Shown in pieces: positions 23,072 through 52,804 of a stretch of DNA of 61,880 nt; the first letter of the stretch is position 1, and the number at the start of each line of letters is the position of its first letter. The stretch lies in the IMG/VR virus record IMGVR_UViG_3300023236_000004. One strand, 5' to 3'. The DNA is from an uncultured virus (IMG/VR IMGVR_UViG_3300023236_000004) (taxonomy: Duplodnaviria > Heunggongvirae > Uroviricota > Caudoviricetes). Below the pieces are notes generated by a model that ran no database searches, was not told the DNA's origin, and saw only the letters and a list, made by a program, of their open reading frames with translations. The translations under genes were made by a program, and so were the position numbers.

Positions 23072-24326
23072 AATATTTCCTATAAAAACAGAAACTGCTT
23101 GCCGTCTGAAATGGGGATGGAGCACCATATATCTCAGTTTAGGCGAAACAGCAAGTTGTCATCGTTGCAACCGACATGAATTTGATTTAGATACATTTGA
23201 TTTTCATAATACAGAAGAGAAAGTTAAATCAAGGGAAATGATGCTAGAAGGCAAGTGGCCTGGCCAAGGATGCGAATACTGCAGAGACATAGAACAAGCA
23301 GGAGGCGAGAGCGATAGAACAACAAATCTGGCAATGCCCGGCGTCCCAACTCCCCCTGAACTCAAGGACAATCCGATAGCAACCAGTGTGACACCTACAG
23401 TGTTGGAAGTTTATTTCAGCAACTTGTGTAATCAAAAATGTCTATACTGTTCAGAACTTTTCAGCTCTATGTGGGCAGAAGAAAACTTCAAGCATGTCGG
23501 GCAATACACAAGTCAAAAGTGGAGTTATTCGAGACATGGCGTAATTTTTAAGAATGCAAATAGCTTCGATGCCAACAAGCAAAAGGTATACGATTGGTTA
23601 AAGAACGAAGGGCATAATTTAAGCCAGTTTAACTTTTTAGGTGGAGAACCTTTATTTCAAAAAGAATTTATAGAATGTTTGGATATATTTGATCAATACC
23701 CCAGTCCGAAACTTACACTACAAATTTTTACCAATCTTAGTGTTAAGAAAGATAGATTAGTTGAAATTATAAGTAAAGTAGAGAAATTAATAGCAAAAAG
23801 AAAAATAGGTGGGTTTCAAGTTACAGCAAGTTTGGACAATTGGGGGCCGGAAGCCGAGTATGTTAGATTTCCGTTAGATTTAAAACAATGGGAAGAAAAC
23901 TTTTTGTACATATTGTCTAAGAAGTATATTAACTTAGTTATTAACTCAACACTTACTCCAATGACTATAAAAACTTATCCTATATTACTTGAAAAAGTTA
24001 GGGAATGGTCTAAGGTTAGAAAGATTTACTTGTATCAAAACTCTGTAAATGATCCTACTAATCAAAGAATAGACATATTCGGAAACATATTCGAAGAAGA
24101 CTTTCAAAAGGCATTGGCATTAAAGCCTGTTGACACAGAGGAAGAACAGCTTAGTAAAGACTACTTAGATGGATTAAGAAAGCAAAGCAACAGCAAAGAA
24201 CCGAATGTCAAGGAAATAACAAGTTTGTTTCACTTTTTAAATGATATTGATTTGAGAAGAAACATAAATTGGAGGAAAACCTTTCCTTGGCTAGTTGCCG
24301 AATTTGGAAAATATAATTTAAAATGA
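23064..24326 (+). CDS. Radical SAM enzyme 2 with N-terminal Twitch/SPASM-like domain
   Basis: CNQKCLYC, LGGEP, and N-terminal CRLKW...CHRC...CEYC. Confidence 0.9.
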   Translation: MNKIFPIKTETACRLKWGWSTIYLSLGETASCHRCNRHEFDLDTFDFHNTEEKVKSREMMLEGKWPGQGCEYCRDIEQAGGESDRTTNLAMPGVPTPPELKDNPIATSVTPTVLEVYFSNLCNQKCLYCSELFSSMWAEENFKHVGQYTSQKWSYSRHGVIFKNANSFDANKQKVYDWLKNEGHNLSQFNFLGGEPLFQKEFIECLDIFDQYPSPKLTLQIFTNLSVKKDRLVEIISKVEKLIAKRKIGGFQVTASLDNWGPEAEYVRFPLDLKQWEENFLYILSKKYINLVINSTLTPMTIKTYPILLEKVREWSKVRKIYLYQNSVNDPTNQRIDIFGNIFEEDFQKALALKPVDTEEEQLSKDYLDGLRKQSNSKEPNVKEITSLFHFLNDIDLRRNINWRKTFPWLVAEFGKYNLK

Positions 24327-25666
24327 ATGATTTAGAATTTAAACAACAAATATTAGACACAAAGTCAGCGAGCTTTTGTGGAGCAAAATGGTATAACGCT
24401 ACTATATGGCTTGGTAGTGGCATGAGTACCAGTTGTCATCATCCACCAGCACACAAAGTTGATATTGAAGAAGTTAAGCGTAATCCCAAAGCAATACACA
24501 ACACGCCCGAAAAGAAGCAAGACAGGGCGCAGATGCAGGCAGGAGAACGTCCGCCAGGTTGTGAGTACTGCTGGAAGATTGAAGATATCAAACGTGATAA
24601 CATTTCTGACCGTGTGTATAAAAGTAAAATATATACTATAAAGGAATTAGACGATGCATATCAATCAGATGCAACAGGAGACGTGGACTTACGAACTTTG
24701 GAAATCAGTTTCGATAGGACTTGTCAATTTGCTTGCAGTTATTGCAACCCTGCTTTTAGTAGTACATGGGTTAAGGATATCAAATCAAACGGAAGTTATA
24801 CTGGGCTTGTTTCTGACGGGCGTAATCATTTTACCCATGCTCATGACAGTGCGCAGTTGTACAAATTCGGCGAGGAAAATCCTTATGTTGAGGCGTTCTT
24901 CAAGTGGTGGGAATCAGACCTACACCGAACGCTAGACGAACTACGCATTACAGGTGGCGAACCACTAATGAGTGGCTACACCTGGAAACTTATAGACTGG
25001 TTTAAACAAAACAAAGGCAAGAGTAAAACACGCTTGGCGATTAACAGTAACTTAGGTAAGGATATAGATGTAGATAGATTGTTCGACAGTGTAGACCAAC
25101 CTATAGACCTATATACTAGCAACGAAAGTTGGGATAAACAAGCAGAGTATATACGTGACGGCCTGGAATGGGAACTGTGGTGTGATAACATAAACAAAGT
25201 ACTAAAAGTACATAGAAATAAATTGCGTGGGTTACATGTAATGTGTACAATTAATGCATTGTGTTTGGAAAGTCTGACTGCCTTTTTAGATTTATTAGTT
25301 GGATGGAAATCAAAACACGGTAAACATGCTGTAAGTTTTACACTTAATATCTTACGCTTCCCTAGTTTCCAAAGTCCGTTGGTGTTCCCTGAAGAAATTA
25401 GAATTAAACACAAAGAACGTTTACGCACATGGTTGGATTATCAAACGGCACGACCAATTGGGCAGTTGTTGCATGAACATGAGATTAACCACATCATACG
25501 ATTAATTGATTACTTGGATGTAGTAGAAACACCACATTCAGACACATTCGACATGCCCAAACTACACAACGACTTTAAACAGTTTCACGAACAGTATGAC
25601 AAACGCAGAGGAAAGAACTTGACAGAGACTTTTCCAGAACTAGCAGATTGGTACAATGGACTCTAA
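24323..25666 (+). CDS. Radical SAM enzyme 3 with N-terminal Twitch/SPASM-like domain
   Basis: CQFACSYC, TGGEP, and N-terminal CGAKW...CHHP...CEYC; closest paralog of enzyme 1. Confidence 0.9.
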   Translation: MNDLEFKQQILDTKSASFCGAKWYNATIWLGSGMSTSCHHPPAHKVDIEEVKRNPKAIHNTPEKKQDRAQMQAGERPPGCEYCWKIEDIKRDNISDRVYKSKIYTIKELDDAYQSDATGDVDLRTLEISFDRTCQFACSYCNPAFSSTWVKDIKSNGSYTGLVSDGRNHFTHAHDSAQLYKFGEENPYVEAFFKWWESDLHRTLDELRITGGEPLMSGYTWKLIDWFKQNKGKSKTRLAINSNLGKDIDVDRLFDSVDQPIDLYTSNESWDKQAEYIRDGLEWELWCDNINKVLKVHRNKLRGLHVMCTINALCLESLTAFLDLLVGWKSKHGKHAVSFTLNILRFPSFQSPLVFPEEIRIKHKERLRTWLDYQTARPIGQLLHEHEINHIIRLIDYLDVVETPHSDTFDMPKLHNDFKQFHEQYDKRRGKNLTETFPELADWYNGL

Positions 25667-26984
25667 AAAATTTTACAACAAAGGCTACGACTACATGAGT
25701 CGCAAGCCGTACTTTGCAGAACTAGAAGACTTGACTGAGAAACAAACAGACTTGTTAATGGACAGCAAAACGTTTTGCATGTTGCCCTGGATGCACATGC
25801 ATGCATTTCCAGATGGCAGAGCATATCCTTGTTGTCTAAGTGATTATTGGCATCCTGTAGGTGACTTACGCAAGCATACTATGGAAGAGGTATGGAATCA
25901 AGACGATTACAAAACAATGCGTACAAATATGCTTGCAGGTAAAGAGTGTAAAGAATGTACCAAGTGTTACGAGCAAGAACAACACGGTGCATTTAGTATG
26001 CGCAACGATTCAAACAGAAACTACGGTCATCACATAGCAGAAGCAGAGCAGACTAATGCAGATGGTTCTGTAGATGATTTTAAAATACGCTACTGGGACG
26101 TTAGGTTCAGTAACCTGTGTAACTTTAGCTGTAGAAGTTGTGGTCCTATCTTTAGCAGTAATTGGTATAATGACCATGTAAAACTGTATAATCGTAAGCC
26201 AGATGTACTGGGTAGGGACATGGCACGAGTAGAGTATACTGCGGGCAACGAAGACAGTATGTTGGAACAAATGGAACAGCATATTCCACATTTAGAGCAG
26301 GTGTATTTTGCAGGTGGCGAACCACTTATAATGAAAGAACATTATTATCTATTAGACAAACTAATAGAGTACGGTAAGACAGATGTGCGAATACAGTACA
26401 ATACAAACTTTAGCGAAATGCGTTATAAAAACAAACATGTATTCGATTACTGGCAACATTTTACGAATGTTAGTGTTGGCGCCAGTTTAGATGCTAGTGG
26501 TGCTAGAGCAGAGCTTATGCGCAAAGGCACAGATTGGAAACAAACAGTTGAGAACAGACAACGCATGTTAAAAGAAGTACCGCATGTGGACTTTTATGTA
26601 AGCGCAACCGTGAGTGCAATGAACGTGCTACACGTGCCAGACTTTCACAAAGAGTGGGTAGAGTTAGGGCTAATTGAAGCAAAAGACTGGAATATTAATA
26701 TATGTCAGTCACCAGACTGGTACAGACCAGATATATTTACAACGGAATTTAAAAAGAATGTTATAACGCCCAAGTACAAAGAACATATTGCATGGTTAGA
26801 CCCGCAGGACAGTTTACGTCGTGCCATTAATGGCTATGAGAGTGTGTTGAGTTTATTACAAGGACAAGATAACAACAAGCAGTGGCCTGAGTTTGAGCAA
26901 CAAATTGCAAAATTAGATGTTATAAGAAACGAAAACTTCTGGGACACATTCCCTGAGTACAAGGAACTAAATGGAACTTCCTAA
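25656..26984 (+). CDS. Radical SAM enzyme 4 with N-terminal Twitch/SPASM-like domain
   Basis: CNFSCRSC, AGGEP, and N-terminal CMLPW...PCC...CTKC. Confidence 0.9.
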   Translation: MDSKKFYNKGYDYMSRKPYFAELEDLTEKQTDLLMDSKTFCMLPWMHMHAFPDGRAYPCCLSDYWHPVGDLRKHTMEEVWNQDDYKTMRTNMLAGKECKECTKCYEQEQHGAFSMRNDSNRNYGHHIAEAEQTNADGSVDDFKIRYWDVRFSNLCNFSCRSCGPIFSSNWYNDHVKLYNRKPDVLGRDMARVEYTAGNEDSMLEQMEQHIPHLEQVYFAGGEPLIMKEHYYLLDKLIEYGKTDVRIQYNTNFSEMRYKNKHVFDYWQHFTNVSVGASLDASGARAELMRKGTDWKQTVENRQRMLKEVPHVDFYVSATVSAMNVLHVPDFHKEWVELGLIEAKDWNINICQSPDWYRPDIFTTEFKKNVITPKYKEHIAWLDPQDSLRRAINGYESVLSLLQGQDNNKQWPEFEQQIAKLDVIRNENFWDTFPEYKELNGTS

Positions 26985-28176
26985 AACAATATGCATGCTA
27001 CCTTGGATTAGCATAGAAGCTAGTCCAATTGGATCCGCAAGACCTTGCTGTTTGGCAATAGACGAAATAACAGATGAGTCAGGCGAAAAGTATGACTTAA
27101 ACAAAGACAATTTGCAGACAATATACAACAGCAAGTACATGCAAGACTTACGGCAACAATTTAGAAATGGTGAGAAACCAGAGACCTGCACACGCTGTTG
27201 GCAAGAAGAAGCCGCAGGCCGTGCAAGCAAACGCATACACAGTAGGATCCGACTAAAAGAGTTTGTTGACAAAGTAGACTATGCTAACGACAAACCAGAC
27301 CAATTATGGTTTGTGGATTTAAAGCTGGGGAACATTTGTAACCTAAAGTGTCGTATATGCGGAAGTTGGAGCAGTAGTAAATGGGCACAAGAAGAAATAG
27401 ATTATATACCCGAATTGAAGAACAAAAAGAGCCACTTGGCATACAAGTTCTTGCAACAAGGACAATGGCCAAGAAAGACACAAGCCTTCTGGGACAACCT
27501 ACGTGAACTACTACCCAACATCAAGTATCTAGAATTCACTGGCGGTGAGCCATTTATGATCAAAGAACACTTTGAATTGCTACAGTATGCAGTAGATCAA
27601 GGCTACGCCAAAGACATTGACATACACTACAACACAAACGGTACACAATGGCCAGATGCGTATGAGTTATGGAGTCACTTTAAACGTGTGGATATTGCAT
27701 TCAGTATCGACAACGTAGGCAAGCGTTTTGAATACGAACGCTACGGTGCTAAGTGGAACGAAGTAGAAGACAACATAAGACGTTTTCATAAACTGCGTGA
27801 TCGCAACATAAGAAAAATTACCACACAAGTGTGCATGACCATTAACGCACAAAATGTTTATTACTTAGAAGAACTATGCGAGTGGGTAAACACACAAACG
27901 TTCAATGATCATTACTTTAACATGTTACACGATCCTAAGCACATGTGTATTGATGGATTGACACCAGTAGCAAAACGTATTGTGGTGGAGAAGTTACTTA
28001 ACGGTAAATTCATGCCCAAACATAAAGCAGAAATCATGCGCATTGTAAAATTTATCGAAAATGGTGCAGGAACTGACGGCGAAGAGTTTGTGTTTAAGAT
28101 GCAACAAACTGATAGATATCGTAAAGAAAGTTTTTCAGACACACACCCGGAAATAGCAAAGGCAATGGGGTACTAA
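26971..28176 (+). CDS. Radical SAM enzyme 5 with N-terminal Twitch/SPASM-like domain
   Basis: CNLKCRIC, TGGEP, and N-terminal CMLPW...PCC...CTRC. Confidence 0.9.
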   Translation: MELPKTICMLPWISIEASPIGSARPCCLAIDEITDESGEKYDLNKDNLQTIYNSKYMQDLRQQFRNGEKPETCTRCWQEEAAGRASKRIHSRIRLKEFVDKVDYANDKPDQLWFVDLKLGNICNLKCRICGSWSSSKWAQEEIDYIPELKNKKSHLAYKFLQQGQWPRKTQAFWDNLRELLPNIKYLEFTGGEPFMIKEHFELLQYAVDQGYAKDIDIHYNTNGTQWPDAYELWSHFKRVDIAFSIDNVGKRFEYERYGAKWNEVEDNIRRFHKLRDRNIRKITTQVCMTINAQNVYYLEELCEWVNTQTFNDHYFNMLHDPKHMCIDGLTPVAKRIVVEKLLNGKFMPKHKAEIMRIVKFIENGAGTDGEEFVFKMQQTDRYRKESFSDTHPEIAKAMGY

Positions 28177-28183
28177 CAAGACT

Positions 28184-29452
28184 ATGGAATTAAAGAAAAT
28201 AATAGATAGTAAATCATACAGAAAATTTAAAGGGGCGGATTGGCCTCAGTATGACGATTTTATTAATGACAACTATAGTGTTTCTCCTACCATTGACAAT
28301 GAATTAAGTAATTTTGTTGGCGTAATGGAGGAACATTATAAAGATATAGCATCTAAGTCAACCGAAGAGTTGTCAACATCAATTCAAACACGCCAGGATC
28401 AAGTTTTTTATAACAAATCATATACTGGAACAAACAGGTGCAGGGAACCATGGGAAACAATGGGAGTCAATGAAAACGGGAATGTTTTTTTATGTGCTTG
28501 CTCAAGTTGGATTCCTATTTTCTTAGGCACAGTATTGGATTCAAAAAACATTTACGAAATATTAAATTGCAACCAAGCAAAGAAAATTAGATTCGAGATT
28601 CTTAAAGATAGATATTACTACTGCAATTCTAGTATATGTACGTTTTTCCAGTCTGCTAACCCAGCATCGCACAAAAAAACGTACACTGATAAAGATCAAA
28701 TACCTTTAGAGTTAGACGATCAAGATGATTCAAATCTTTGTGTTACACAAATACCAAAAAATTTAGTTTTTGATTTTGATATTAGCTGTAATTTTAAGTG
28801 TCCGAGTTGTAGAGTAGAATATCAAAATTACAACAATGATCTCATTATAAGACCAATTAATGATACGATATCTGAAAAGATTAAAAAATTGATAATTGAC
28901 GAAATCAAGGACCAACCTATAATTATCAGATGGGCTGGCGGCGAGCCATTTATAAGTGACGTTTATTTAGAACTGCTTGACTACATAATAGATAGTGGTA
29001 AAACAAACATACAGAATATTATACACACAAATGGCAGTGTCCTTATTGCAAAGAAAGACTTAGTGTTGAAGTTACTTCCTTATATCTCAGAGTTACGTAT
29101 AAGTTTTGATGCAGGCTGTGAGCAAACCTATAAACTAACACGAGTTGGCGGACAGTGGGACAACCTATTAAAAAATGTAAAATTTGTTAAAGATCTAATA
29201 GAAGAAAATAATTTTAAAACAAAGTTATCTGCTGACTTTGTAGTACAAAAGAGTAATTATAAAGATCTACCTCTATTTGCTAACCTGTGTAGAGAGTTTG
29301 GATTGTCGATGAATATACAAAAAATGTGGAATTGGGATACCTGGGACAAAGAAGTTTTTTATGACATGAATGTATATGATAGCAAACATTATTTGTACGA
29401 CGATTTAAAAGAATATTTTAAGTTAGCTAATTTACCAATGGCCGAAAATTGA
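28184..29452 (+). CDS. Radical SAM enzyme 6 (divergent subfamily, AT-rich gene)
   Basis: CNFKCPSC, AGGEP, and upstream CREPW...CAC...CNSSIC; lacks the SSxW motif of the other six. Confidence 0.88.
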   Translation: MELKKIIDSKSYRKFKGADWPQYDDFINDNYSVSPTIDNELSNFVGVMEEHYKDIASKSTEELSTSIQTRQDQVFYNKSYTGTNRCREPWETMGVNENGNVFLCACSSWIPIFLGTVLDSKNIYEILNCNQAKKIRFEILKDRYYYCNSSICTFFQSANPASHKKTYTDKDQIPLELDDQDDSNLCVTQIPKNLVFDFDISCNFKCPSCRVEYQNYNNDLIIRPINDTISEKIKKLIIDEIKDQPIIIRWAGGEPFISDVYLELLDYIIDSGKTNIQNIIHTNGSVLIAKKDLVLKLLPYISELRISFDAGCEQTYKLTRVGGQWDNLLKNVKFVKDLIEENNFKTKLSADFVVQKSNYKDLPLFANLCREFGLSMNIQKMWNWDTWDKEVFYDMNVYDSKHYLYDDLKEYFKLANLPMAEN

Positions 29453-30735
29453 AATCAAAAACATTATGCATGGCACCGTGGACACACACGTATCTGAGTC
29501 CACAGACAGAAAGACGTTTATGTTGTGCATCACGTGAACCAGCACAAAACTTTGAACAGTACATAGATACAAAAGCAGGTACTGGTACTTATATACCTAT
29601 TACATTAGAACAGCATTGGAATAGTGAACACATGCGTAGTGTGCGCAAGCGCATGATGGCAGGAGAAACGTTACCAGAGTGTGAAGTGTGCAATGACAAG
29701 TTATTAAACACTGACGTTTACCGCTCATATTTTAACAGTTTATTTGGGCATAAGTACTTACACGCAGTAGAAACAACTGACGAAACAGGTTACACCTCCA
29801 TGGAGCCAATCTCCTGGGATTATCGATTCAGTAACCTATGTAACTTCAAATGCCGTATGTGCGGCGACATGCTGTCCAGTGCATGGGAAACTGAGCAAAA
29901 ACAGCATGACATGGTCAATTGGCACGATCCAAAAAACAGTTGGATGCGCCCCGAGGTCAAGAATCAGATTGAACATTTCCAAAGTACTCAAGTTGAACAA
30001 GAGTTTGCACAAGCGGTAGAGGACCACCGTGTCGAGGAAGTCTATTGGGTAGGCGGTGAACCTCTCATGTACGAGCAACACTGGAAGTACATGCAGAGAA
30101 TAATTGAACTGGGAGATGGAAAAAATGTTTATGCAAGGTACAACACTAATCTTAGTAGGATCACTTATCGCGGTTGCGATCTTTACAGTGATATTTTACC
30201 TGGGCTTCGCGACTGGCAAATATGCGCAAGCATTGACGGTACAGGCACAATTGGAGAGTATGTCAGAACAGGTCTTGACTATCCGGAGTGGCTTGAAAAT
30301 TTTAAACGAGGAGTTAGTACAGCTACTCATAGAAGACAAATGAGAATAGACTTCACGCTTACCTTACCGGGTATGTTTGAAGTCGTTCCAATAATCAAAC
30401 TAGCACGTGAGCTTAATGTAGATATCTTGGCTAAAGTTGTTTTCAGCTTTAGCCCGGATATTGCGTTGAGTCCACTAGCACTACCAAAATCTATTTTACA
30501 TAAATGGGTGGACGAACTGTTGCCGGACACACATGGTGCAATGCATGATGTACTACAGCAACTTAAATCACGTCCTACGTTTGACGAACAATGGCCAAAT
30601 GAATACAAACAAGGACTTGCAAAAGGCAAGGCTCGTGTGTTACAATTAGAAAGTATTAGAACGCAATCAACTACAATGGATGAAATATTGTCCAAGAGAC
30701 CAGACGTATATGAGTGGTGGAATCAAATCAGTTAA
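29449..30735 (+). CDS. Radical SAM enzyme 7 with N-terminal Twitch/SPASM-like domain
   Basis: CNFKCRMC, VGGEP, and N-terminal CMAPW...LCC...CEVC; TTG start overlaps the upstream stop. Confidence 0.9.
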   Translation: MKSKTLCMAPWTHTYLSPQTERRLCCASREPAQNFEQYIDTKAGTGTYIPITLEQHWNSEHMRSVRKRMMAGETLPECEVCNDKLLNTDVYRSYFNSLFGHKYLHAVETTDETGYTSMEPISWDYRFSNLCNFKCRMCGDMLSSAWETEQKQHDMVNWHDPKNSWMRPEVKNQIEHFQSTQVEQEFAQAVEDHRVEEVYWVGGEPLMYEQHWKYMQRIIELGDGKNVYARYNTNLSRITYRGCDLYSDILPGLRDWQICASIDGTGTIGEYVRTGLDYPEWLENFKRGVSTATHRRQMRIDFTLTLPGMFEVVPIIKLARELNVDILAKVVFSFSPDIALSPLALPKSILHKWVDELLPDTHGAMHDVLQQLKSRPTFDEQWPNEYKQGLAKGKARVLQLESIRTQSTTMDEILSKRPDVYEWWNQIS

Positions 30736-31858
30736 GGTAGTACTACGTAATCCTTTAGACAAAAAAGATCAGTTAGACTACACAATAGAATTAACAGATA
30801 CCCAATTGGCGCAGGACTGGGCGAGTGCATTGCAGGTAGAATTACGAAGCAACAGACTATTAGAAAAAAATTATTGCTTTATGGGCTTCCCCCATTCGCC
30901 GCGCAACTTGCCCTATCTGTGTCGCGAAATAAATGATTCGATATACCGTATTAATATTTTTAATCGCACAGGTATTTGGCAGCAAGCGGGACTTAAACCT
31001 TACATAATAGAAGATTACTTTACGCCAGACACTGTCCGATTCGGTGATGAATATCCTGTTGGCTATGATAGTGACAACTTGGGCCTTGGGGTCAAGCATG
31101 GTGCAATGAATAGACTACATAACTACTTCGAAGTACTGCAAGGCACTGTAGAAAATCTAAGTCCTTATTACAAACATGCAGATTTTGAAACCAAATACGC
31201 TATTAGGCAACTAAACAACTTATGTCACGAATCAGAAACGCTTATTCTAAGTCAACGTAAACAAGCAACAGTGCCAGACTGGGTACGTCCTAGTCAGATT
31301 ACAACATTCTTGCAAGCATTACGTTTTGAGCTAACGGACGAGCATAGGAAAGATTTTATTGCAAACGGATACGACAGAGAGTTTGGTGGAGTATACATGC
31401 ACTGGACACAAATTGGCAAAACACTGATGGAAGTGTTTAGGGATGAGCATGCACCAGAATTAACTGACACGGTATGTGAAGCAATTACTCATTTACAATA
31501 CTACTCGGGAGAGTTTGATGTAGAGTGGGGTAAAACAATACGCTATGTTGATGGTTACGAGTGGCACAATAAAGAAATTGATGACTTTACTAATTGGTTA
31601 GAACTTAACGGCATGGACCCAACTGATCCACAGTTAAGTTTAGGGCATGCAAAAATTGGACAAGTATTGCTGACAGAAAGTTTTGGACAATGTCATCCCC
31701 AAGCAATACTACAACATCTTAGCAATCACTTAGACATTTACCGTATAGAAGTTGGAGACGTGAGTAATACGTTTGATTATTGTTGGGGTGACCATAACTA
31801 CAAACAAACGCAAATAGACATGATGAGGCCAGGGTATGAACATAGTAGCAGGGGGTGA
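30710..31858 (+). CDS. Hypothetical protein in the modification operon
   Basis: Long coupled ORF with His motifs 'NRLHNYFE' and 'LNNLCHE'; no family recognised. Confidence 0.7.
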   Translation: MSGGIKSVKVVLRNPLDKKDQLDYTIELTDTQLAQDWASALQVELRSNRLLEKNYCFMGFPHSPRNLPYLCREINDSIYRINIFNRTGIWQQAGLKPYIIEDYFTPDTVRFGDEYPVGYDSDNLGLGVKHGAMNRLHNYFEVLQGTVENLSPYYKHADFETKYAIRQLNNLCHESETLILSQRKQATVPDWVRPSQITTFLQALRFELTDEHRKDFIANGYDREFGGVYMHWTQIGKTLMEVFRDEHAPELTDTVCEAITHLQYYSGEFDVEWGKTIRYVDGYEWHNKEIDDFTNWLELNGMDPTDPQLSLGHAKIGQVLLTESFGQCHPQAILQHLSNHLDIYRIEVGDVSNTFDYCWGDHNYKQTQIDMMRPGYEHSSRG

Positions 31859-32648
31859 TAGTTTCGTATACGGTAGTGAATTAAAAGACTGCATACGTGC
31901 GCATAGTCACAGCACATTTCCTGCATTGTTGGCACATGATATTAAACAAACATATAGATGCACAGCCTGGCCCGGTATAGGCAACGATGCTATTGCACGT
32001 AGAGTGATTGATGAAGTTTATGTATACCGCATGCACGGCACTCAGGTCCGTGATTTATTTGTTATTGTAAACTGGACATTCCCTGGCAGGTATGAATTTA
32101 GATTCAACTACGACACAGGGCAACGCACAGGTAATTGGTACGCTATTACTCCGCACACCGCAGATATCAAATTAGAAAATCCTATAGCAAGAATGCAAAG
32201 CGAGCACATTGCTAGAGCTACGCAAAAAGGTATGGCAGGTTTTGCTGAAACTTTCTACAAACATGTAGGTGGGGATTACTGGGACACATACCAATCGTTA
32301 AAAGAAATAGTGTATCTGCAAAACTACTTAATTGCAAACGGAATAAAGTACATGTTCACATGTGCAGATAACAGTATCTTGTGCAATAAATTGATACATG
32401 ACGCTAGTAACAGATCAATGAAGATGTGTGATGATAACATCAACATGCTAGTCAAGGAGATCAAAGATCGACAACAAAACTGGTTTTGGTTTCCGGATGG
32501 TGAAACAGGCCCAAGAGGTTTTTACCAGTGGGCAATGGAAAATAAATACCCTAGTGGAGAAACACATCCACTAGAAGAAGCGCACGATGCCGCTTATCAA
32601 CTTATGAAGGACAAGTTCAATGAACTGGTTAAAGAACCTTTGGAATAG
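31836..32648 (+). CDS. SGNH/GDSL-like hydrolase or acyltransferase
   Basis: N-terminal GDSF, 'PGIGND.I' and C-terminal 'HPLEEAH'. Confidence 0.75.
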   Translation: MNIVAGGDSFVYGSELKDCIRAHSHSTFPALLAHDIKQTYRCTAWPGIGNDAIARRVIDEVYVYRMHGTQVRDLFVIVNWTFPGRYEFRFNYDTGQRTGNWYAITPHTADIKLENPIARMQSEHIARATQKGMAGFAETFYKHVGGDYWDTYQSLKEIVYLQNYLIANGIKYMFTCADNSILCNKLIHDASNRSMKMCDDNINMLVKEIKDRQQNWFWFPDGETGPRGFYQWAMENKYPSGETHPLEEAHDAAYQLMKDKFNELVKEPLE

Positions 32649-32721
32649 AATCATCCTAGAAATACGCTATCGTAAAAAGCTCAAAGAACTTAAAAAACGA
32701 GATCCTTTTATTTACAAATGA
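32620..32721 (+). CDS. 33-aa peptide MNWLKNLWNRIILEIRYRKKLKELKKRDPFIYK (below the ORF-track cutoff); DltX/SxtK-like FIY motif
   Basis: ATG at 32620 preceded by AAGGA. It fills the gap between two SGNH genes, and its TGA overlaps the next start (ATGA, 32718-32721). Confidence 0.75.
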   Translation: MNWLKNLWNRIILEIRYRKKLKELKKRDPFIYK

Positions 32722-33353
32722 TTTTAACAATAGGCGACAGTTTTACCTACGGTGCAGAACTTGACAATCGTGAACAAGACGCATGGCCGTATCTATTGGG
32801 AAGAGAATTAGACTTTGGAGTTTACAACCTTGCTGTACCTGGGGGTAGTAACGATAGGATGTTTAGGGTTACTATTGACCGGGTTGTACAAAATAATTAT
32901 GAACTAGTAATATGCGCTTGGACTGAACCGTCAAGACTTGATTTAATGTTCGGAGGAAAAGAGCTACAAATAACCAGTGCTAGTTATCATCACCACACTA
33001 GGTTCCCGTGGATTAAACAGTATTATGCAGAACACTATGATGTAGCACACGCAACACAAACTTGGTTAGCAAAGGTATTAGCACTACAAGATCTTTTAAA
33101 ACAGCGTAGACAAAAGTATGTGTTTGTTAGTATGGACGGGCACTGGGACGACTACCACTATAAGAATATTGGTTTACAGCATATGGCTGATGCAGTAGAC
33201 AAAGAACACTACTTGGGTTGGCCTCATGAGGGATTCACGCATTGGCAGGATGGTTGTCCGTTAGGCCCAAATGGACATCCATTGGAACTTGGACATCAAC
33301 GAATAGCAGATAAAATTTATGAACATATTAGGAATAAGCAGTGGTTTTCATGA
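32718..33353 (+). CDS. SGNH/GDSL-like hydrolase or acyltransferase
   Basis: GDSFTYG, 'NLAVPGGSND' and C-terminal 'GHPLELGH'. Confidence 0.8.
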   Translation: MILTIGDSFTYGAELDNREQDAWPYLLGRELDFGVYNLAVPGGSNDRMFRVTIDRVVQNNYELVICAWTEPSRLDLMFGGKELQITSASYHHHTRFPWIKQYYAEHYDVAHATQTWLAKVLALQDLLKQRRQKYVFVSMDGHWDDYHYKNIGLQHMADAVDKEHYLGWPHEGFTHWQDGCPLGPNGHPLELGHQRIADKIYEHIRNKQWFS

Positions 33354-34812
33354 CGCTGGTGCTAGTGTAATAAACACAGCAGGCGACATACTGTTTGCTA
33401 GTCATAGCGAACGCTACAGCAAACAAAAACACGATCCCAATCTATGCGAGGGGATTGTGCAAGAAGCAATGAGCCACGGTATTGATCATATTGCATACTA
33501 TGAGCGTCCTTGGTTGAAACAAATACGCAGACTCATATCAGGTGAAGGATTCAACTGGACGCAAACCAGTGTTGATAAATTGATATTCGATCAAATCGGA
33601 CGTCCTGTTGATGTTCCTGTTAGCACACATAATCATCATTTAAGCCATGCTGCCGCTGGATTTCAAACATCTCCGTTTGAACGTGCAACAGTTGTTGTAG
33701 TAGACGCTATAGGTGAGTTGGATTGTATTACCATATGGGGCGCTGAATACAAGAATGGTCGTGCAGTGTACAAGAAACTTTGGACCAGACGTTACCCACA
33801 CAGTATCGGGTTGATGTACTCGGCCGCAACTGCACACATAGGACTACGCCCAATGGACGAAGAGTATATTCTAATGGGAATGGCCGCTTATGCCGACAAA
33901 GAAAAAGTACGACATTATTCTAATCAGTTGTCTCACAAACTTGTAGCAGACTTTACTAATATAAAATTAAAACATAATTTACACACAGGCTTTGACGGTG
34001 TGTTGAGCAACGAACTGTCGGTTATTAGCGATGCAGACATGGCTGGTAGTATACAAGCAGTTACAGAAACATTGCTTAACAGTGTTATGTGGAATGCGGC
34101 AAACTTTCATTGGAGTAAAAATTTAGTATTCATGGGAGGTGTTGCACTTAACTGTTTAGCCAATAGACTTTTAGGTAGTTGCTTTGACAATTTTTGGATT
34201 ATGCCAAACCCAGGTGATGCTGGTAGTAGTTTAGGAGCCGCGGCACTAGTGCATGGTGGCAGACTAAATTGGCAACATCCTTATCTTGGTCACAACATAC
34301 CTGGTGAGTATCCTGTAAAGGCACTGGTAAAAGAATTAGCCAAGAATAAAATAGCAGGTGTAGCAAGTGGCAGAGCAGAGTTTGGTCCTAGAGCATTGGG
34401 TAACAGAAGTTTACTAGCGGACCCACGTGGCAAAGAAATAAAGGATCGTGTAAATGAAATTAAACGTAGACAACACTTTAGGCCATTTGCTCCTGCTATA
34501 CTGGCAGAGCATGTGCATGACTATTTTGAAATGCCCAAAGGTTGGCAACGTAGTGATTACATGCAAGTGGTAGCACGGTGTACAAGTGACAAGTTTCCTG
34601 CTATACTACATGCTGACGGAACAAGTAGAGTACAAACAGTACCTGCAGATAGCGGCAGTGGATTTAGAAAACTGTTAGAAGCATGGTATAAGAAAACAGG
34701 TTGCCCGATGTTGCTTAATACAAGTTTAAACATCAGGGGCGAACCGATGGTAAACGATCGTGCAGATGCTGATCGTTTCGAAACTGAATATGGAGTTCGA
34801 GTACTATCATGA
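33319..34812 (+). CDS. Carbamoyltransferase, NodU/CmcH/TobZ family
   Basis: 'FHDAGA', 'ERYSKQKHD', 'HHLSHAA', 'VVDAIGE', 'GGVALNC', 'PGDAG', 'EFGPRALGNRSLLADPR', 'FRPFAP', 'HADGTSRVQTV', 'LLNTSLN'. Confidence 0.95.
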   Translation: MNILGISSGFHDAGASVINTAGDILFASHSERYSKQKHDPNLCEGIVQEAMSHGIDHIAYYERPWLKQIRRLISGEGFNWTQTSVDKLIFDQIGRPVDVPVSTHNHHLSHAAAGFQTSPFERATVVVVDAIGELDCITIWGAEYKNGRAVYKKLWTRRYPHSIGLMYSAATAHIGLRPMDEEYILMGMAAYADKEKVRHYSNQLSHKLVADFTNIKLKHNLHTGFDGVLSNELSVISDADMAGSIQAVTETLLNSVMWNAANFHWSKNLVFMGGVALNCLANRLLGSCFDNFWIMPNPGDAGSSLGAAALVHGGRLNWQHPYLGHNIPGEYPVKALVKELAKNKIAGVASGRAEFGPRALGNRSLLADPRGKEIKDRVNEIKRRQHFRPFAPAILAEHVHDYFEMPKGWQRSDYMQVVARCTSDKFPAILHADGTSRVQTVPADSGSGFRKLLEAWYKKTGCPMLLNTSLNIRGEPMVNDRADADRFETEYGVRVLS

Positions 34813-35465
34813 AAAATTTAGTTGTAGTCGGTGACAGTTTCTGTGCTAGTAAAGGTTGGCCCCAGGAACTAGCACAATTACTAAATTTAAATTTAGTTGT
34901 TGCAGGGTATAGCGGACACCCATGGTGGGCTTATCGACATTTCTTGAATCAAAAATATATTAAAGATATGTTGGCAACAGAAACCGATGCCCTTGTTTTT
35001 GTTCACAGTTTCGCAGAAAGAATCCCGTTCGATTGCCCTAACTATGAAATAGCAAACATCAATAAATTTGATCCTACTCCTAAAACAGAAGTAGGACTAG
35101 CAGTGAAACTGTATTACAAGTATTTAGAAAATGCACCTTTTGCAGAATGGGCACAGCAGAAATGGTTTGAAGAAATCAATAAAGAATATTCTAACATCAA
35201 AACTGTCCATTTACATGGTTTTCCTAGTTCGTTGCCATTTCGAAACCTACTAGGTGGTGTACAAGTACTTCCAGACTTAACATCGATTAGTATTGCAGAA
35301 ATATACAAGGACACAGCACATCCTAACACATTGCATCAAGACACCAGACTAAATCATTTTAGTAAAGAGAATAATTCTGTCATTGCGACCCAATTATGCA
35401 AGCTAATTACAGATTATTCTCCAGGCGACCACGAATTCAACTTGGATCATTTTCAACTAAATTAG
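34809..35465 (+). CDS. SGNH/GDSL-like protein
   Basis: 'VVGDSFC' and C-terminal 'D.RLNHFS'. Confidence 0.65.
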   Translation: MKNLVVVGDSFCASKGWPQELAQLLNLNLVVAGYSGHPWWAYRHFLNQKYIKDMLATETDALVFVHSFAERIPFDCPNYEIANINKFDPTPKTEVGLAVKLYYKYLENAPFAEWAQQKWFEEINKEYSNIKTVHLHGFPSSLPFRNLLGGVQVLPDLTSISIAEIYKDTAHPNTLHQDTRLNHFSKENNSVIATQLCKLITDYSPGDHEFNLDHFQLN

Positions 35466-37007: not shown

Positions 37008-38220
37008 GAGACTCTTCATAGCTCGTAGCATTTTGTCTTATTTCTAATATCTGATCTCTCCCGATCGGTGGCAGAGGAACACCTATGTCTGGCTTAGTCC
37101 AATCAATCAATTTATCATTTACTTTTTCAAAATTGGATGCAAGTTCGGCCCAGGCTTTATCTAAAAAGTCTGTGCTGTAAAATAAATTATAATTGTGTTC
37201 CAGCACTTCTGTCATGTCCTGTAACATGTCCTCTAACTCACCCAATGATTTCTTGCATATACTTTTTATAATATTACTTACGGCTTCTAAACGCTGTACA
37301 GGATCAGTAATAGCATCATAACTTTCGTCCCACCAACGACCGAATGTTCTAAATCCGTAACTACGGAAATAATCTAAATTGTTTGCGCAACCAACAAGTA
37401 CAAACGGTTGTTTAGCAACAATAGGTTTGAATATTTTTTCAGTTAAGTGTGTACGATCGTCCCAGAACATAGTCTCAGTTACTACATGTAAGAAACTTGA
37501 CATTAATTCTGGTAATGGTCCTATACTTTGACTTCCATTGGGGATGTCTGCTTCGGAACTGTCGATACGCAATGAGCGCGGCAAACTGTTTACTTTTGCT
37601 ACAACTTGGTTAATATATTCACGGCTAAAGAGAAACTTTTTATTATTGTTAACTAATGCATCACGGCATGTTTCGTTGTGTACTGGGCAGTTGTGACTAT
37701 AACTAACATACCCTTGATCGATGACATCAGCTAATTCTGCTACTAGCAGACTTCTATAAACACGCATGTTGCCAGTAATTCTATTAAAACAAACAAACTT
37801 CTTTTGCAGTTTTCTTTTTGATGGATCAGTAATGTTAACATTATATCTATAACCTCTATACCAATCACTTGCACAAAACGCATGGAAGAAGTAATTAACA
37901 TCTACCGCATTGTAATGTTTAAGTATCTTTTCTTTCTCCTCACTATGTCTTTCTGTGCTTAGCAAAATCATTGGTCTGAATTCACCTTGTAAATCTCTAT
38001 GGACATCGTTAATGTAATTAAATAAAGGTGTGTTATAAAACAAGTCAAGAGGTTCTTGATCATAAATTACAACCATTGGTCCATTGTCGTTACCTCCTAT
38101 TATTTCAACATTTTCTGGTTGAGTTGATCCAAAAGGATGTAGGTACATTAGGGAACATTCTGTTATAATACTTTTAGCTAAATTTAAGATGTTCTCATTA
38201 TGACTATATATATTATACAT
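36961..38220 (-). CDS. Glycosyltransferase-like protein (GT-B; C-terminus resembles GT10-type 'TEK' domain)
   Basis: 'SFLHVVTET...HLTEKIFKPIVAKQPFVLVG...GFRTF...WDESYD...LEHNY'. Confidence 0.6.
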   Translation of the reverse strand: MYNIYSHNENILNLAKSIITECSLMYLHPFGSTQPENVEIIGGNDNGPMVVIYDQEPLDLFYNTPLFNYINDVHRDLQGEFRPMILLSTERHSEEKEKILKHYNAVDVNYFFHAFCASDWYRGYRYNVNITDPSKRKLQKKFVCFNRITGNMRVYRSLLVAELADVIDQGYVSYSHNCPVHNETCRDALVNNNKKFLFSREYINQVVAKVNSLPRSLRIDSSEADIPNGSQSIGPLPELMSSFLHVVTETMFWDDRTHLTEKIFKPIVAKQPFVLVGCANNLDYFRSYGFRTFGRWWDESYDAITDPVQRLEAVSNIIKSICKKSLGELEDMLQDMTEVLEHNYNLFYSTDFLDKAWAELASNFEKVNDKLIDWTKPDIGVPLPPIGRDQILEIRQNATSYEESLKTIAEVESQILSKT

Positions 38221-40096
38221 GTTTGATGTTTTTTATTACGGGCCAAAGCCCAACTTATTTGAATTTGAGAAACCTGCTAGTAGTCTTAGGGATGCGGCAG
38301 ATCAAAGTCGTACACGCTTCTACTGGTATATTTATGGGGGCAATGATTACTCAAATTTTAATTTTAATTTTGTACCTGTGCCGTGGGAAGCAGATCATGT
38401 ACACAGTTTCAGTACGCAATGGCAACGCACAGGCGGAGCATACCTGGCCAGTCCACTTACAGCACATAACGAAGAATACAACTTCCACACCAGTGAAATA
38501 AAACGCATACAAGATAAGACAAACTGGATCACGCCCAAAGAGGTTGATGATACAGACTTTGATTACAGTTGGCATCCTGACGATCTAGAACCAGAATACG
38601 AATACCATTTCCCTACACAGTGGCAACGACAAGGTGGACCTGTGTATCGCGGCACTGCTGGTATTAAGTTTATGAGTAGCCAAAAAGTTAAGACCAACAG
38701 TACGCAAATATTCTACATGGACTTTATGAATGAACAGAGTAAAGATCAACTGGAAAGTTTGCGTGAACAACACCCTACAATAAAAAGCACACGTTACGTG
38801 GATAGTCACTTGAATGTGTTTAAACGTATCATAAACTTAGCCACAACAGAGTATGTGTGGGTTATCAGCAGTCTGTGTGATTACAGCACGTTTGATTTTA
38901 GTTGGCACCCGGACCAAGCACAACGTAACATGATACATGTGTTTCCTAGTGGCAATAATCGTCGTGGTGATACATTCTATATTCGTGTAGAGAGCATCCG
39001 ACAACAATTGTATGAACTAGAACTGCTGGACTGGTTTAATGTGATTAACTATTGCGATGACCAAACTGTGAGATGGTTTCCAATACCAACAGTTGTGTAT
39101 GATCATGATAATCTAATAGAAGAAGTTAAAAATCACGATTTTAAATTTCCCTATACACTGTTTACCAATCAAAAATACCTAAACATGAATTACCATTTTT
39201 GTTTGTGGCATGCCAAGGATCGTGTAGCCAAACGTGTTAGCCTAAGTGGTGCATCAAGTTTAGTACCCAAGGATGTGAAGGTAGATTTAAAAACACAAAT
39301 GTATGACTACCCGTATGTAATAGAGACCAAAGGTGAATATCATGTGCTGGAACAGAATCTTGATATTGTGTACATCAGCAACGGTGAGCCTGACGAACGC
39401 AAGTATTACAACCATTTAACTTACTGTACCTCAGATGAACTGCGTTATGCATTTGATGTTGCCGCGTCAGGTAATAGGCTTACTACAAGTCCTAGAGTAA
39501 AATGGGTGCGTGGTGTTAACGGTAGAACAGCCGCATACCAGGAAGCGGCCAGGCAAAGTACTACACCGTGGTTCTTTGCAGTGTTTGCTAAACTAGAAAT
39601 TAGTCCAGCATTTAATTTTAACTGGCGCCCGGACTATTGGCAAGAGCCTAAGCATTATATTTTTAATAGTGTTAATCCTGTAAACGGGCTGGAGTATGGA
39701 CACCAAGGCATGATTGCCTACAACAAACGTTTGGTATTAGAAAACAACGATCCCGGGATTGACTTTACACTGAGCCAACCACACGAGTCAGTACCACTAC
39801 AGTCAGGCGTAGCACACTTTAACCAAAGTCCTTGGATGACGTGGCGTACAGCATTTAGAGAAGTGCTTAAACTAAAACTGTTTATGGATACAGAGCCCAC
39901 ACTAGAAACAGAGCATAGACTTAAGGTTTGGACCACAGTAGCACATGGCCAACATGCTGAGTGGTGCATTAATGGGGCTAACGATGCTGTGATCTATTAC
40001 AAGAGTGTCGGGGGTAATTATAACAAACTCATGTTAAGTTTTGATTGGGACTGGCTACAACAATACTTTACGAGCCTCTATAAAACTCGTATATAG
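38219..40096 (+). CDS. Multi-repeat glycosyltransferase-like protein, paralogous to 20757..21686
   Basis: Repeated 'S/ATT..FW......DYS.F.F.W.P...H.F' units; C-terminal domain 'DIVYISNGEP...NPVNGLEYGH...WRTAFREVLKL'. Confidence 0.65.
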   Translation: MFDVFYYGPKPNLFEFEKPASSLRDAADQSRTRFYWYIYGGNDYSNFNFNFVPVPWEADHVHSFSTQWQRTGGAYLASPLTAHNEEYNFHTSEIKRIQDKTNWITPKEVDDTDFDYSWHPDDLEPEYEYHFPTQWQRQGGPVYRGTAGIKFMSSQKVKTNSTQIFYMDFMNEQSKDQLESLREQHPTIKSTRYVDSHLNVFKRIINLATTEYVWVISSLCDYSTFDFSWHPDQAQRNMIHVFPSGNNRRGDTFYIRVESIRQQLYELELLDWFNVINYCDDQTVRWFPIPTVVYDHDNLIEEVKNHDFKFPYTLFTNQKYLNMNYHFCLWHAKDRVAKRVSLSGASSLVPKDVKVDLKTQMYDYPYVIETKGEYHVLEQNLDIVYISNGEPDERKYYNHLTYCTSDELRYAFDVAASGNRLTTSPRVKWVRGVNGRTAAYQEAARQSTTPWFFAVFAKLEISPAFNFNWRPDYWQEPKHYIFNSVNPVNGLEYGHQGMIAYNKRLVLENNDPGIDFTLSQPHESVPLQSGVAHFNQSPWMTWRTAFREVLKLKLFMDTEPTLETEHRLKVWTTVAHGQHAEWCINGANDAVIYYKSVGGNYNKLMLSFDWDWLQQYFTSLYKTRI

Positions 40097-52103: not shown

Positions 52104-52132
52104 ATAGTAGCATATTACAGAAGCTTAGTCAA
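52104..52132 (-). promoter_or_regulatory. sigma70 promoter TTGACT-N17-TACTAT (extended -10), probably giving a leaderless mRNA
   Basis: -35 at 52132-52127, TGn then -10 at 52109-52104; the start A at 52097 is 7 nt downstream and there is no RBS. Confidence 0.65.
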
Positions 52133-52804
52133 GTAAGGTAACAGGAATTCTGCCCATTTACGATGACCATCTGCTCTGTAGTGGTAACTTGGAAGTGCTG
52201 TAAGTCCTTGATTCTTTAAATAGTTGTAGTATGTCATGTCTGGGTTGTATGGCTCTATAAAACAATCTTCCCAATCTTCTCGATCTTGCAATGGGATGTG
52301 TCGAAAGTTACTGAAACTGTTGAAAAACAAATGCGGTATTTCTTGTTCTTGTAGTTCTTTGTGGAACTGCCAAATCTTTTCATGTTCTTGTTGTTCGCAC
52401 ATGATCCAGTCTATGTTAGCAATATAAAACTTGTATTTTTCCTTTACTAATTCAGGCCAGTCTTCTCCTACGCCACCTGCATTAATTTGCCAATAAGTGT
52501 TATGGTGCAACCATTCTTGCCTTTCATGTGTACTCCATCCTATAATAACAGCATTAGGTTTACCACCTGCAATGTATGCTCTAGTGGTACGTAGTATACG
52601 ATCGTTACTGCTGGCGGCTTCTGCACCACAGTGCAGTATAGCAAATAATTCGTTTGCTATTAAACAACCATAACTGACCTTTTCGTTCTCGGGATGAGGT
52701 ATACGTCCAAGATTATAGTAAAAAGGATCATCTTCTGCAAAACAATAATCGTTAACTGCTTCAGCTCCCGCACTATGGCTGTCACCATTTACATACAGTA
52801 TCAT
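52115..52804 (-). CDS. SGNH/GDSL-like protein (fourth copy)
   Basis: 'YVNGDSHSAG', 'SSNDRILR', 'IIGWS...R.E' and C-terminal 'HYRADGH..WA'. Confidence 0.75.
   Translation of the reverse strand: MILYVNGDSHSAGAEAVNDYCFAEDDPFYYNLGRIPHPENEKVSYGCLIANELFAILHCGAEAASSNDRILRTTRAYIAGGKPNAVIIGWSTHERQEWLHHNTYWQINAGGVGEDWPELVKEKYKFYIANIDWIMCEQQEHEKIWQFHKELQEQEIPHLFFNSFSNFRHIPLQDREDWEDCFIEPYNPDMTYYNYLKNQGLTALPSYHYRADGHRKWAEFLLPYLTKLL

Follow-up and report, generated by a model that had tools for sequence, protein, structure and literature searches.

What does an open reading frame (ORF) of only 33 codons do when it lies between two genes for SGNH-fold proteins and upstream of a carbamoyltransferase gene on the same strand? 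The question is raised by a stretch of 61,880 nucleotides (nt), hereafter the window, from an uncultured virus of the Caudoviricetes (IMG/VR record IMGVR_UViG_3300023236_000004). The ORF, at 32620..32721 (+), is predicted to encode a tyrosine-tailed microprotein of 33 amino acids (aa), in which a conserved basic amphipathic helix is followed by the end D28-P29-F30-I31-Y32, with K33 as the last residue. The original prediction, made from the letters of the window, had quoted this ORF with a ribosome-binding site (RBS) and an ATGA coupling, and had proposed that a carbamoyl group passes from the carbamoyltransferase to the peptide tyrosine, then to the serine of an SGNH protein and finally to a sugar. 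The ORF reads exactly as quoted: its first 29 nt overlap the upstream 270-aa gene (31836-32648), AAGGA precedes the ATG by 8 nt, and its stop and the start of the downstream 211-aa gene (32718-33353) form a common ATGA. The description of the ORF as uncalled is true of this window; elsewhere homologues have been called, as 'hypothetical protein', in data of the Joint Genome Institute (JGI).

Within 9 kb there are 114 ORFs of at least 25 aa, so that ORF size alone was uninformative and conservation is what counts. Purifying selection was assessed on 117 distinct 60-nt cores drawn from 137 loci. Differences at codon positions 1, 2 and 3 numbered, respectively, 30941, 17009 and 68402, and the differing codon pairs comprised 57993 synonymous against 21849 non-synonymous ones. 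The residues D, P, F and Y were invariant though every synonymous codon is used for them, and the two other frames contained stops in 103 and 100 of the cores. As judged from these substitution patterns, 32620-32721 was confirmed as a real gene under purifying selection. RBS-like sequences (AGGAG/AAGGA) also preceded the candidate peptide starts of other loci at matching spacing. Contigs of relatives from four metatranscriptome libraries covered the peptide region, with a likeness of at least 85% per contig and in most cases below 95% (for example, record 17 of X18 covers 32561-32734 with 6 differences); these are contigs from libraries in which DNA may be present, and they bear on the transcript, not on translation.

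A profile search in which 8000 candidates were scored returned at least 6313 related proteins (clusters at 90% identity, E<=0.01). Among the 120 matches listed, most were 33 aa long, none had a Pfam domain, and the named ones were the 'hypothetical protein' entries of JGI data. Phage peptides found no match in PHROGs or NCBIfam, and the ESM Atlas returned only unnamed clusters of 33-37 aa. In the GenBank phage collection, tblastn of the peptide gave no match and blastn of 31836-35465 a single short one of 182 bp. The peptide is present as one copy in the parent record of the window, a 221,342-bp IMG/VR virus record with a CheckV completeness of 63%.

Alignment of 39 sequences revealed that D28, P29, F30 and Y32 are invariant and that I31, E14, K19 and K26 are nearly so. 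The conserved unit consists of the C-terminal ~18 (18-20) residues, while the N-terminal third is variable and of two kinds, either basic and amphipathic (MNWLKNLW...) or long, acidic and of low complexity (loci L043-L050, L054, L055 and L059). Hydrophobic residues at -19, -15, -11 and -8 amid K, R and E give the pattern of an amphipathic helix, and direct reading showed charges throughout, with no hydrophobic run over about 4 residues and no transmembrane (TM) stretch, as expected for the basic, amphipathic peptide without a TM helix that had been described. In the wider family the F30 position may be H or Y (DPHIY, DPYIY), which gives the consensus D-P-[F/H/Y]-I-Y-(K/R). Across all 161 distinct contexts the Tyr was invariant and never Phe, the ends being YK in 121, YR in 33 and Y in 4. 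The stop overlapped the next start as ATGA in 120 of these contexts; there was no overlap in 36, and the sequence was still kept. These comparisons show the working part of the peptide to be a putative flexible C-terminal arm, an amphipathic helix capped by the consensus motif. A role for the Tyr hydroxyl is favoured because the Tyr is invariant while the neighbouring residue varies.

The enzyme gene of the block, at 33319..34812 (+), encodes a class III O-carbamoyltransferase (CT) of the TobZ/NodU/NovN type with Kae1-like and YrdC-like domains. The assignment, which agrees with the NodU-type enzyme of the original prediction, is based on matches in Pfam (Carbam_trans_N, 8e-36; Carbam_trans_C, 5e-52), PHROG (phrog_1601, 5e-95) and the Protein Data Bank (PDB), where the relatives are NovN, GdmN and TobZ (9s2t, 7vzq and 3ven, E 2e-54 to 1e-37). 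Residues H106, H107 and H110 and an NPGD block were invariant among 13 phage CTs; the three histidines are putative ligands of the metal site known from TobZ and GdmN. With the CT as bait, 72 viral loci were obtained, of which 63 had a close CT, at 48-72% identity; L001, the contig of the window itself, is counted among them. When these loci were scanned in six frames, a same-strand upstream ORF ending DPF[IV]Y was found in 57 of the 63. Three of the six misses had no upstream DNA, leaving 57 of 60 informative loci.

The reverse search gave a corresponding picture. With the peptide as the only query, 411 matches were confirmed; in the 80 viral loci retrieved from these, a CT was found <=3 kb downstream in 78, and one exception ends 514 nt past the peptide. 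The distance from the peptide to the CT start was -3 to +21 nt in 41 loci, 161-216 nt in 2, about 510-655 nt in 27 (one SGNH-sized gene, as in the window) and 1232-1631 nt in 8. The nine loci with distant viral CTs (41-46% identity, L064-L072) had no motif-ending ORF in the scan, and five of them (L064, L065, L068, L070 and L072) had none under a looser motif either. The linkage is near-absolute both ways, and the peptide goes with a single clade of class III CTs as their dedicated partner. In a CT tree (FastTree, midpoint root), which leaves out the nine distant phage CTs (L064-L072) and does not resolve the bacterial branch from which the phage clade arose, the phage clade (47 with the tail and 3 without) stood apart from the bacterial clade.

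The closest 'bacterial' CT (47% identity) comes from a contig of a gammaproteobacterial metagenome-assembled genome (MAG; L074) and groups inside the phage CT clade beside L043. The locus has two matches to the phage SGNH profile and no tail ORF, and the contig may be viral DNA binned into the MAG.

The tail was not confined to free peptides. A search among longer proteins gave 98 matches, 64 of them GatZ/KbaZ-aldolase-like proteins of 345-369 aa. Thirteen of the 98 sequences were read: three were GatZ/KbaZ-like, ending ...KKRLEELRKRDPFIYR, and the other carriers were a UDP-glucose-dehydrogenase-like protein, an HAD phosphatase, proteins related to the window's 419-aa ORF, and others. One GatZ-like protein was used to retrieve 74 loci; the tail was fused to it in 38, with 4 more fusions cut at the contig start, and a free peptide was present in about 22; the remaining 10 were scored as having no tail, and both of those read (L273 and L290) hold the DPHIY variant. 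In most fused loci the tail stop overlaps the CT start, the exceptions being 4 loci without a CT match and one with the CT about 380 nt downstream. The tail is therefore either free or tethered to an upstream enzyme, keeping its place before the CT.

In the window, SGNH genes flank the peptide gene on both sides. The downstream one (32718..33353, +), which lies between peptide and CT and whose start is the ATGA shared with the peptide stop, encodes a soluble SGNH-fold protein of the DUF6071 type (Pfam 1.9e-9). Its AlphaFold2 (AF2) model, with a predicted local distance difference test score (pLDDT) of 92.7, had 77 Foldseek matches at E<=1e-3; among the best of those listed, GDSL-family esterases and the thioesterase TesA predominated, and PatB (8tlb) came at rank 29. 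The upstream one (31836..32648, +) encodes a soluble SGNH-like paralog of 270 aa, which starts with GGDSF, matches DUF6071 at 0.0028 and falls in the same BLAST cluster as 32718-33353. A distant DUF6071-like SGNH paralog lies at 52115..52804 on the minus strand, 17 kb from the CT (hhalign 98.9%, E 1e-17, 205 columns; phage SGNH family profile, E 4.6e-24). Four SGNH genes had been counted in the window, and these three stand; the remaining one, counted as the third, is a 218-aa ORF at 34809..35465 (+) coupled to the CT stop and is doubtful. It starts with VVGDSF and may be a divergent SGNH-like protein, an identity not established by an hhalign score of 74% over 71 N-terminal columns; it belongs to a small cluster of 4 loci, has no Pfam match, and is not found by the family profile at E<=0.01.

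The phage SGNH family (27 members) matched DUF6071 in 16 and Lipase_GDSL_2 in 8 members. Its alignment showed the block I Ser (Ser8) in 27/27, the oxyanion Asn (Asn45) in 27/27 and the block V His (His187) in 24/27 sequences. The proteins begin with the GDS block and have no membrane anchor. In the 221-kb record, at its completeness of 63%, no match was found to MBOAT (PF03062, for which controls matched in 4 genomes), to SxtJ (PF19588) at E<=1 or to DUF5989. The set had been described as membrane-free and devoid of an MBOAT, and so it appears: the peptide has no TM helix, the phage SGNH proteins have no anchor, and neither MBOAT nor SxtJ was found.

Within the same 27 sequences, block I reads GDS in 17 and GCS in 10, and the triad Asp expected at His-3 is not conserved. 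One 290-aa member of the phage SGNH cluster (L051:2933-3802) ends ...AELQARDPFHYETRK, a tail-like motif fused to an SGNH-like protein, in a locus that also encodes the free peptide.

Modules of the sxtI-J-K-L type were first noted in saxitoxin clusters and are widespread in bacterial surface-glycan loci. The bacterial set analyzed here comprised 79 loci retrieved by the phage CT alignment, at 30-47% identity. An ORF matching a DUF5989 profile built here occurred in 46 of them, and Pfam DUF5989 was confirmed in 10 of 12 tested ORFs (6e-27 to 4e-5), 9 of which were above the 27-bit cut-off; the match of L098:5319-5468 (23.9 bits) was below it. These ORFs are about 50 aa long, with an amphipathic start, an RKK box, one hydrophobic helix of ~20 residues and a C-terminal motif, and their tails, APFIYT[ILV]F or APFVYTLF, fit the FxYxxF acyl-shuttle motif. 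SxtJ (PF19588) adjoined in all four cases tested (E 4e-45 to 0.003), with three of the scores exceeding the 24.4-bit cut-off. Among 301 sampled genomes of one bacterial class, 54 had DUF5989 above the cut-off, and the best 30 loci were examined: a CT lay within 1.5 kb in 30/30 and SxtJ was present in 29/30. GDSL/AlgX-like SGNH genes were found in 22 of 48 SxtK loci versus 4 of 31 non-SxtK loci, an uneven comparison in which Pfam was run only near SxtK and the non-SxtK loci were screened by the phage-derived profile only. SxtK (DUF5989) peptides ending PFIYxxF beside CT and GDSL genes, as cited in the original prediction, are borne out by these loci. The bacterial SGNH neighbours had an N-terminal TM-like segment in 18 of 18 examined (Kyte-Doolittle window) and an N-terminal extension of 90-150 residues. 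The bacterial gene order corresponds to the sxtI-J-K-L arrangement, and SxtK is often the last gene of its operon. The combination of CT, FIY tail and SGNH protein recurs, soluble in phages and membrane-bound, with SxtJ and SxtK, in bacteria.

Some bacterial loci showed further variants. In a Planctomycetota MAG, an acidic ORF of 114 aa directly 3' of the CT (L127:5820-6161) has no TM stretch, no Pfam match and the end ...DDDDVSPFVYVMF, and may represent the tail protein in a soluble bacterial version. An MBOAT-type fragment in another CT locus (L115:142-624) ends ...PAPFIYFQF and has a weak MBOAT match (E 0.18), and in a third (L123) an MBOAT gene at 6832-7947(-) (5e-23) lies beside an ORF at 7940-9016 with a weak match to the phage SGNH profile (E 1.2e-4). 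Most bacterial SxtJ ORFs (e.g., L093:3461-3838) end ...[NK]QF or ...KPF, a second conserved C-terminal aromatic motif in the module. Genes for the small and large chains of carbamoyl-phosphate synthase lie beside SxtK in two loci (L113:3262-4392 and L152:6821-8014), which fits a local supply of the CT substrate.

When compared to the sxtI-J-K-L module, the phage set shares a homologous CT (30-47% identity), a CT-adjacent microprotein with a P-F-I-Y core and, in about half of the loci, an SGNH/GDSL protein. It differs in that the phage peptide has no TM helix and ends Y-(K/R) rather than YT[ILV]F, in that SxtJ is missing, and in that the phage SGNH proteins are without the N-terminal anchor of the bacterial ones. 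The functions of SxtJ and SxtK are given as unknown in PMC2679770 and PMC2885083. A mechanistic precedent is offered by the FXYXXF acyl-shuttle motif of DltX and MBOAT C-termini, whose Tyr, according to PMC12148441, carries the acyl group to an SGNH Ser, the peptide of NgPatA being FIYANF; this agrees with the premise of the original prediction that the FIYxxF Tyr shuttles the group to the SGNH-like DltD. The phage set resembles DltX/DltB/DltD and PatA/PatB in its F-I-Y core, its invariant Tyr, the SGNH partner encoded alongside, and a motif borne on a separate microprotein or fused to an enzyme. The differences are that the phage donor would be a soluble, ATP-dependent CT and not an MBOAT, that the group would be carbamoyl and not acyl, that the parts would all be cytoplasmic, and that the final xxF is missing. 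A second precedent is HypF, a class II carbamoyltransferase, which carbamoylates the C-terminal Cys of HypE. In that system, an enzyme with YrdC-like and Kae1-like domains uses carbamoyl-AMP to carbamoylate the residue that ends a flexible C-terminal tail (PMC9633730 and PMC12130793). The HypE acceptor is the Cys thiol in the PRIC motif of a 300-aa enzyme and is then dehydrated to thiocyanate, whereas in the phage the group would be attached to the hydroxyl of a Tyr in a 33-aa peptide, and the phage CT is of the NodU/TobZ class and not of the HypF kind. No literature linking SxtK/DUF5989 to the shuttle motif or, among the papers listed, Dlt with SxtK was found in a search that left most subscription journals outside.

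The two precedents, acyl-Tyr in Dlt/Pat and carbamoyl transfer from HypF to HypE, make a relay from Tyr to SGNH plausible. In such a relay the phage arm would be the membrane-free counterpart of SxtK. The CT would make carbamoyl-AMP from carbamoyl phosphate and ATP and, as HypF does with the Cys of HypE, carbamoylate the invariant Tyr at its hydroxyl; for this the Tyr would reach into the Kae1-like site. The Ser of a soluble SGNH protein would then accept the group from the aryl carbamate, just as DltD/PatB receive theirs from the acyl-Tyr of DltX/PatA, and the SGNH protein would place the carbamoyl on a sugar or glycan from the surrounding sugar-tailoring island (the genes from 21.7 to 42 kb of the window). 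In loci without a neighbouring SGNH gene, the carbamoyl group would be accepted by an SGNH protein encoded elsewhere or by a different enzyme. This relay, from CT to Tyr to SGNH Ser to sugar or glycan, we regard as quite possible, if somewhat short of probable. The observation of the original prediction is confirmed, and its relay interpretation is partly supported: the architecture has strong support, while the chemistry is argued from analogy. What is new is a membrane-free variant of the SxtK/DltX kind of tyrosine-tailed microprotein, to which shuttle chemistry may by analogy be ascribed. A wider scheme is more doubtful, namely that the arm, free or tethered, would be a soluble protein-borne carbamoyl carrier, loaded by the CT at its C-terminal Tyr and unloaded by SGNH paralogs onto different positions of a phage glycan, and that SxtJ, SxtK and an anchored GDSL protein would form a transmembrane carbamoyl shuttle, a non-acyl, MBOAT-free sibling of Dlt/Pat.

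The proposal gives a testable role to an abundant and unnamed phage microprotein, whose clusters have no family model, and likewise to SxtJ and SxtK, and also to sxtL if the transmembrane shuttle is true. If the Tyr does carry carbamoyl, the shuttle principle of Dlt/Pat would apply to a further chemical group and a further class of donor enzyme, and would be found outside the membrane as well. Since the phage proteins are soluble, reconstitution with three small proteins would be far easier than for membrane systems.

Several results weigh against the relay. The peptide was truly absent at three CT loci (L020, L040 and L063). SGNH genes were found within 3-5 kb in only 26/57 and 38/80 phage loci; among 10 long records without an adjacent SGNH gene (25-72% complete), 7 encode one elsewhere and 3 have none at all. 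The phage motif stops at Y-(K/R), without the final xxF of FxYxxF. The DUF5989 model (PF19451, cut-off 27 bits) matched 0 of 6 phage peptides at E<=10, hhalign of the peptide with DUF5989 aligned PFIY only (4 columns, 27% probability), and an N-terminal sub-profile was barely enriched, with 6 phage peptides in the top 45 of 2949, which leaves a common origin with SxtK unproven. SxtL, a GDSL relative, has been proposed in PMC2885083 to remove carbamoyl groups rather than to add them. The class III enzymes TobZ and GdmN carbamoylate small molecules directly (PMC9633730), so it is not evident why a soluble enzyme would need a shuttle. Aldolase-like and dehydrogenase enzymes to which the arm is fused have no obvious place in a relay, and the aldolase-like fusions suggest a docking tag as much as a carrier.

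These points lead to the alternative that survives best, in which the arm is a non-covalent accessory: it would bind the CT and stimulate it, supply the missing part of its acceptor site, or hold neighbouring sugar enzymes to it, while the CT acts on the sugar directly and the SGNH proteins are esterases or decarbamoylases. The amphipathic helix pattern fits docking, a recruiting tag could explain the fusion to diverse upstream enzymes, an adjacent SGNH gene is facultative, class III CTs are known to transfer the group directly, and the proposal for SxtL is that of a decarbamoylase. On the other hand, the hydroxyl is implicated by the lack of any Phe in place of the Tyr over 161 contexts, next to a position where F can give way to H or Y; a free peptide with only an acidic disordered linker before its arm has no partner to tether; and the identical FIY core of SxtK fits the proven acyl-Tyr motif. 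On this balance an accessory role is rather unlikely, albeit one to be taken seriously. Prediction of a complex of CT and peptide gave 0.36, 0.00 and 0.18 in its runs against a mark of 0.32 and is evidence neither way.

The upstream neighbours bear on another alternative, in which the peptide would be a substrate or scaffold, with radical SAM/twitch enzymes and the CT acting on its C-terminal Tyr(-Lys) to yield a modified peptide or a released small molecule in the manner of ribosomally synthesized and post-translationally modified peptides. The gene at 29449..30735 (+) encodes a radical SAM protein with an N-terminal SPASM/twitch-like domain (Radical_SAM and SPASM matches) and is the last of a series of paralogs, which preceded the peptide in 80/80 peptide-anchored viral loci. 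It is followed at 30680..31858 (+) by a gene for a 392-aa protein of unknown family, which lies directly upstream of the SGNH/peptide block in 79/80 of these loci. In the AF2 model of this protein (pLDDT 81), a cyclophilin-like barrel carries a helical insert, and X-Pro peptides are known ligands of that fold; the VIA Z values of 7-9 to cyclophilins are middling, in the range called common, and a weak support. No match was found for it with Foldseek or, by sequence, in Pfam, PHROG and PDB, and it is tied to the peptide only by position. Conservation confined to the peptide C-terminus would also suit a substrate. However, no such radical SAM genes were present among the 117 neighbours scanned in bacterial SxtK/CT loci, and in a wider phage set they lay within 5 kb in only 42/64 loci. 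The arm also occurs fused to enzymes of 330 aa, and seven paralogous radical SAM genes are better suited to sugar tailoring. A substrate is accordingly an improbable role for the peptide.

The position of the gene could also suggest a cis-acting leader, in which the C-terminal ~18 residues, as a nascent chain in the ribosome tunnel, tune termination-reinitiation at the next start: the peptide is always upstream on the same strand, the ATGA overlap occurs in 120/161 contexts, and conservation is limited to the last ~18-20 residues, irrespective of what stands before them, even a whole enzyme. Such a leader is highly improbable, given that the next gene is not the CT in 35 of 78 loci (the 27 and 8 with the longer gaps), that the amphipathic periodicity is not needed by a tunnel-arrest peptide, that the same FIY core occurs in SxtK, a membrane protein often last in its operon, and that the sequence is kept in the 36/161 contexts without overlap. 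A chance ORF in the overlap region of two real genes, suggested by the shortness of the frame, its overlap with the end of the upstream gene and the many ORFs of this kind, is refuted by the selection pattern, in which all synonymous codons are used and the other frames carry stops in most cores, by the relatives, at least 6313 in number, and by the CT linkage in both directions.

The relay would operate within an island of other sugar-tailoring genes. Besides about seven radical SAM paralogs with an N-terminal SPASM/twitch-like domain (21686-30735), the island contains genes for a P-loop kinase-like protein, a dCMP deaminase, a DegT aminotransferase and an NAD epimerase/dehydratase. The radical SAM array consists of seven tandem paralogs of about 400-460 aa each. 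Radical_SAM was at or near the Pfam thresholds in 5 of the seven, 4 of these having the N-terminal SPASM/twitch-like domain, and the paralog at 24323-25666 had no Pfam match. DNA near-identical to the window was found in 15 salt-lake metagenome runs, from which the virus may derive.

On the 3' side of the CT, a family beginning MFDVFY.G.KPN... (window member at 38219-40096; also L005:6494-11473 and others) was found in 55 of 64 phage loci, often immediately downstream. It has no Pfam match and runs to the locus end at a length of more than 1660 aa. The sugar island itself is situated behind a giant ORF (2-12487) of more than 4161 aa, open at the window start, with FG-GAP repeat and beta-propeller-like matches.

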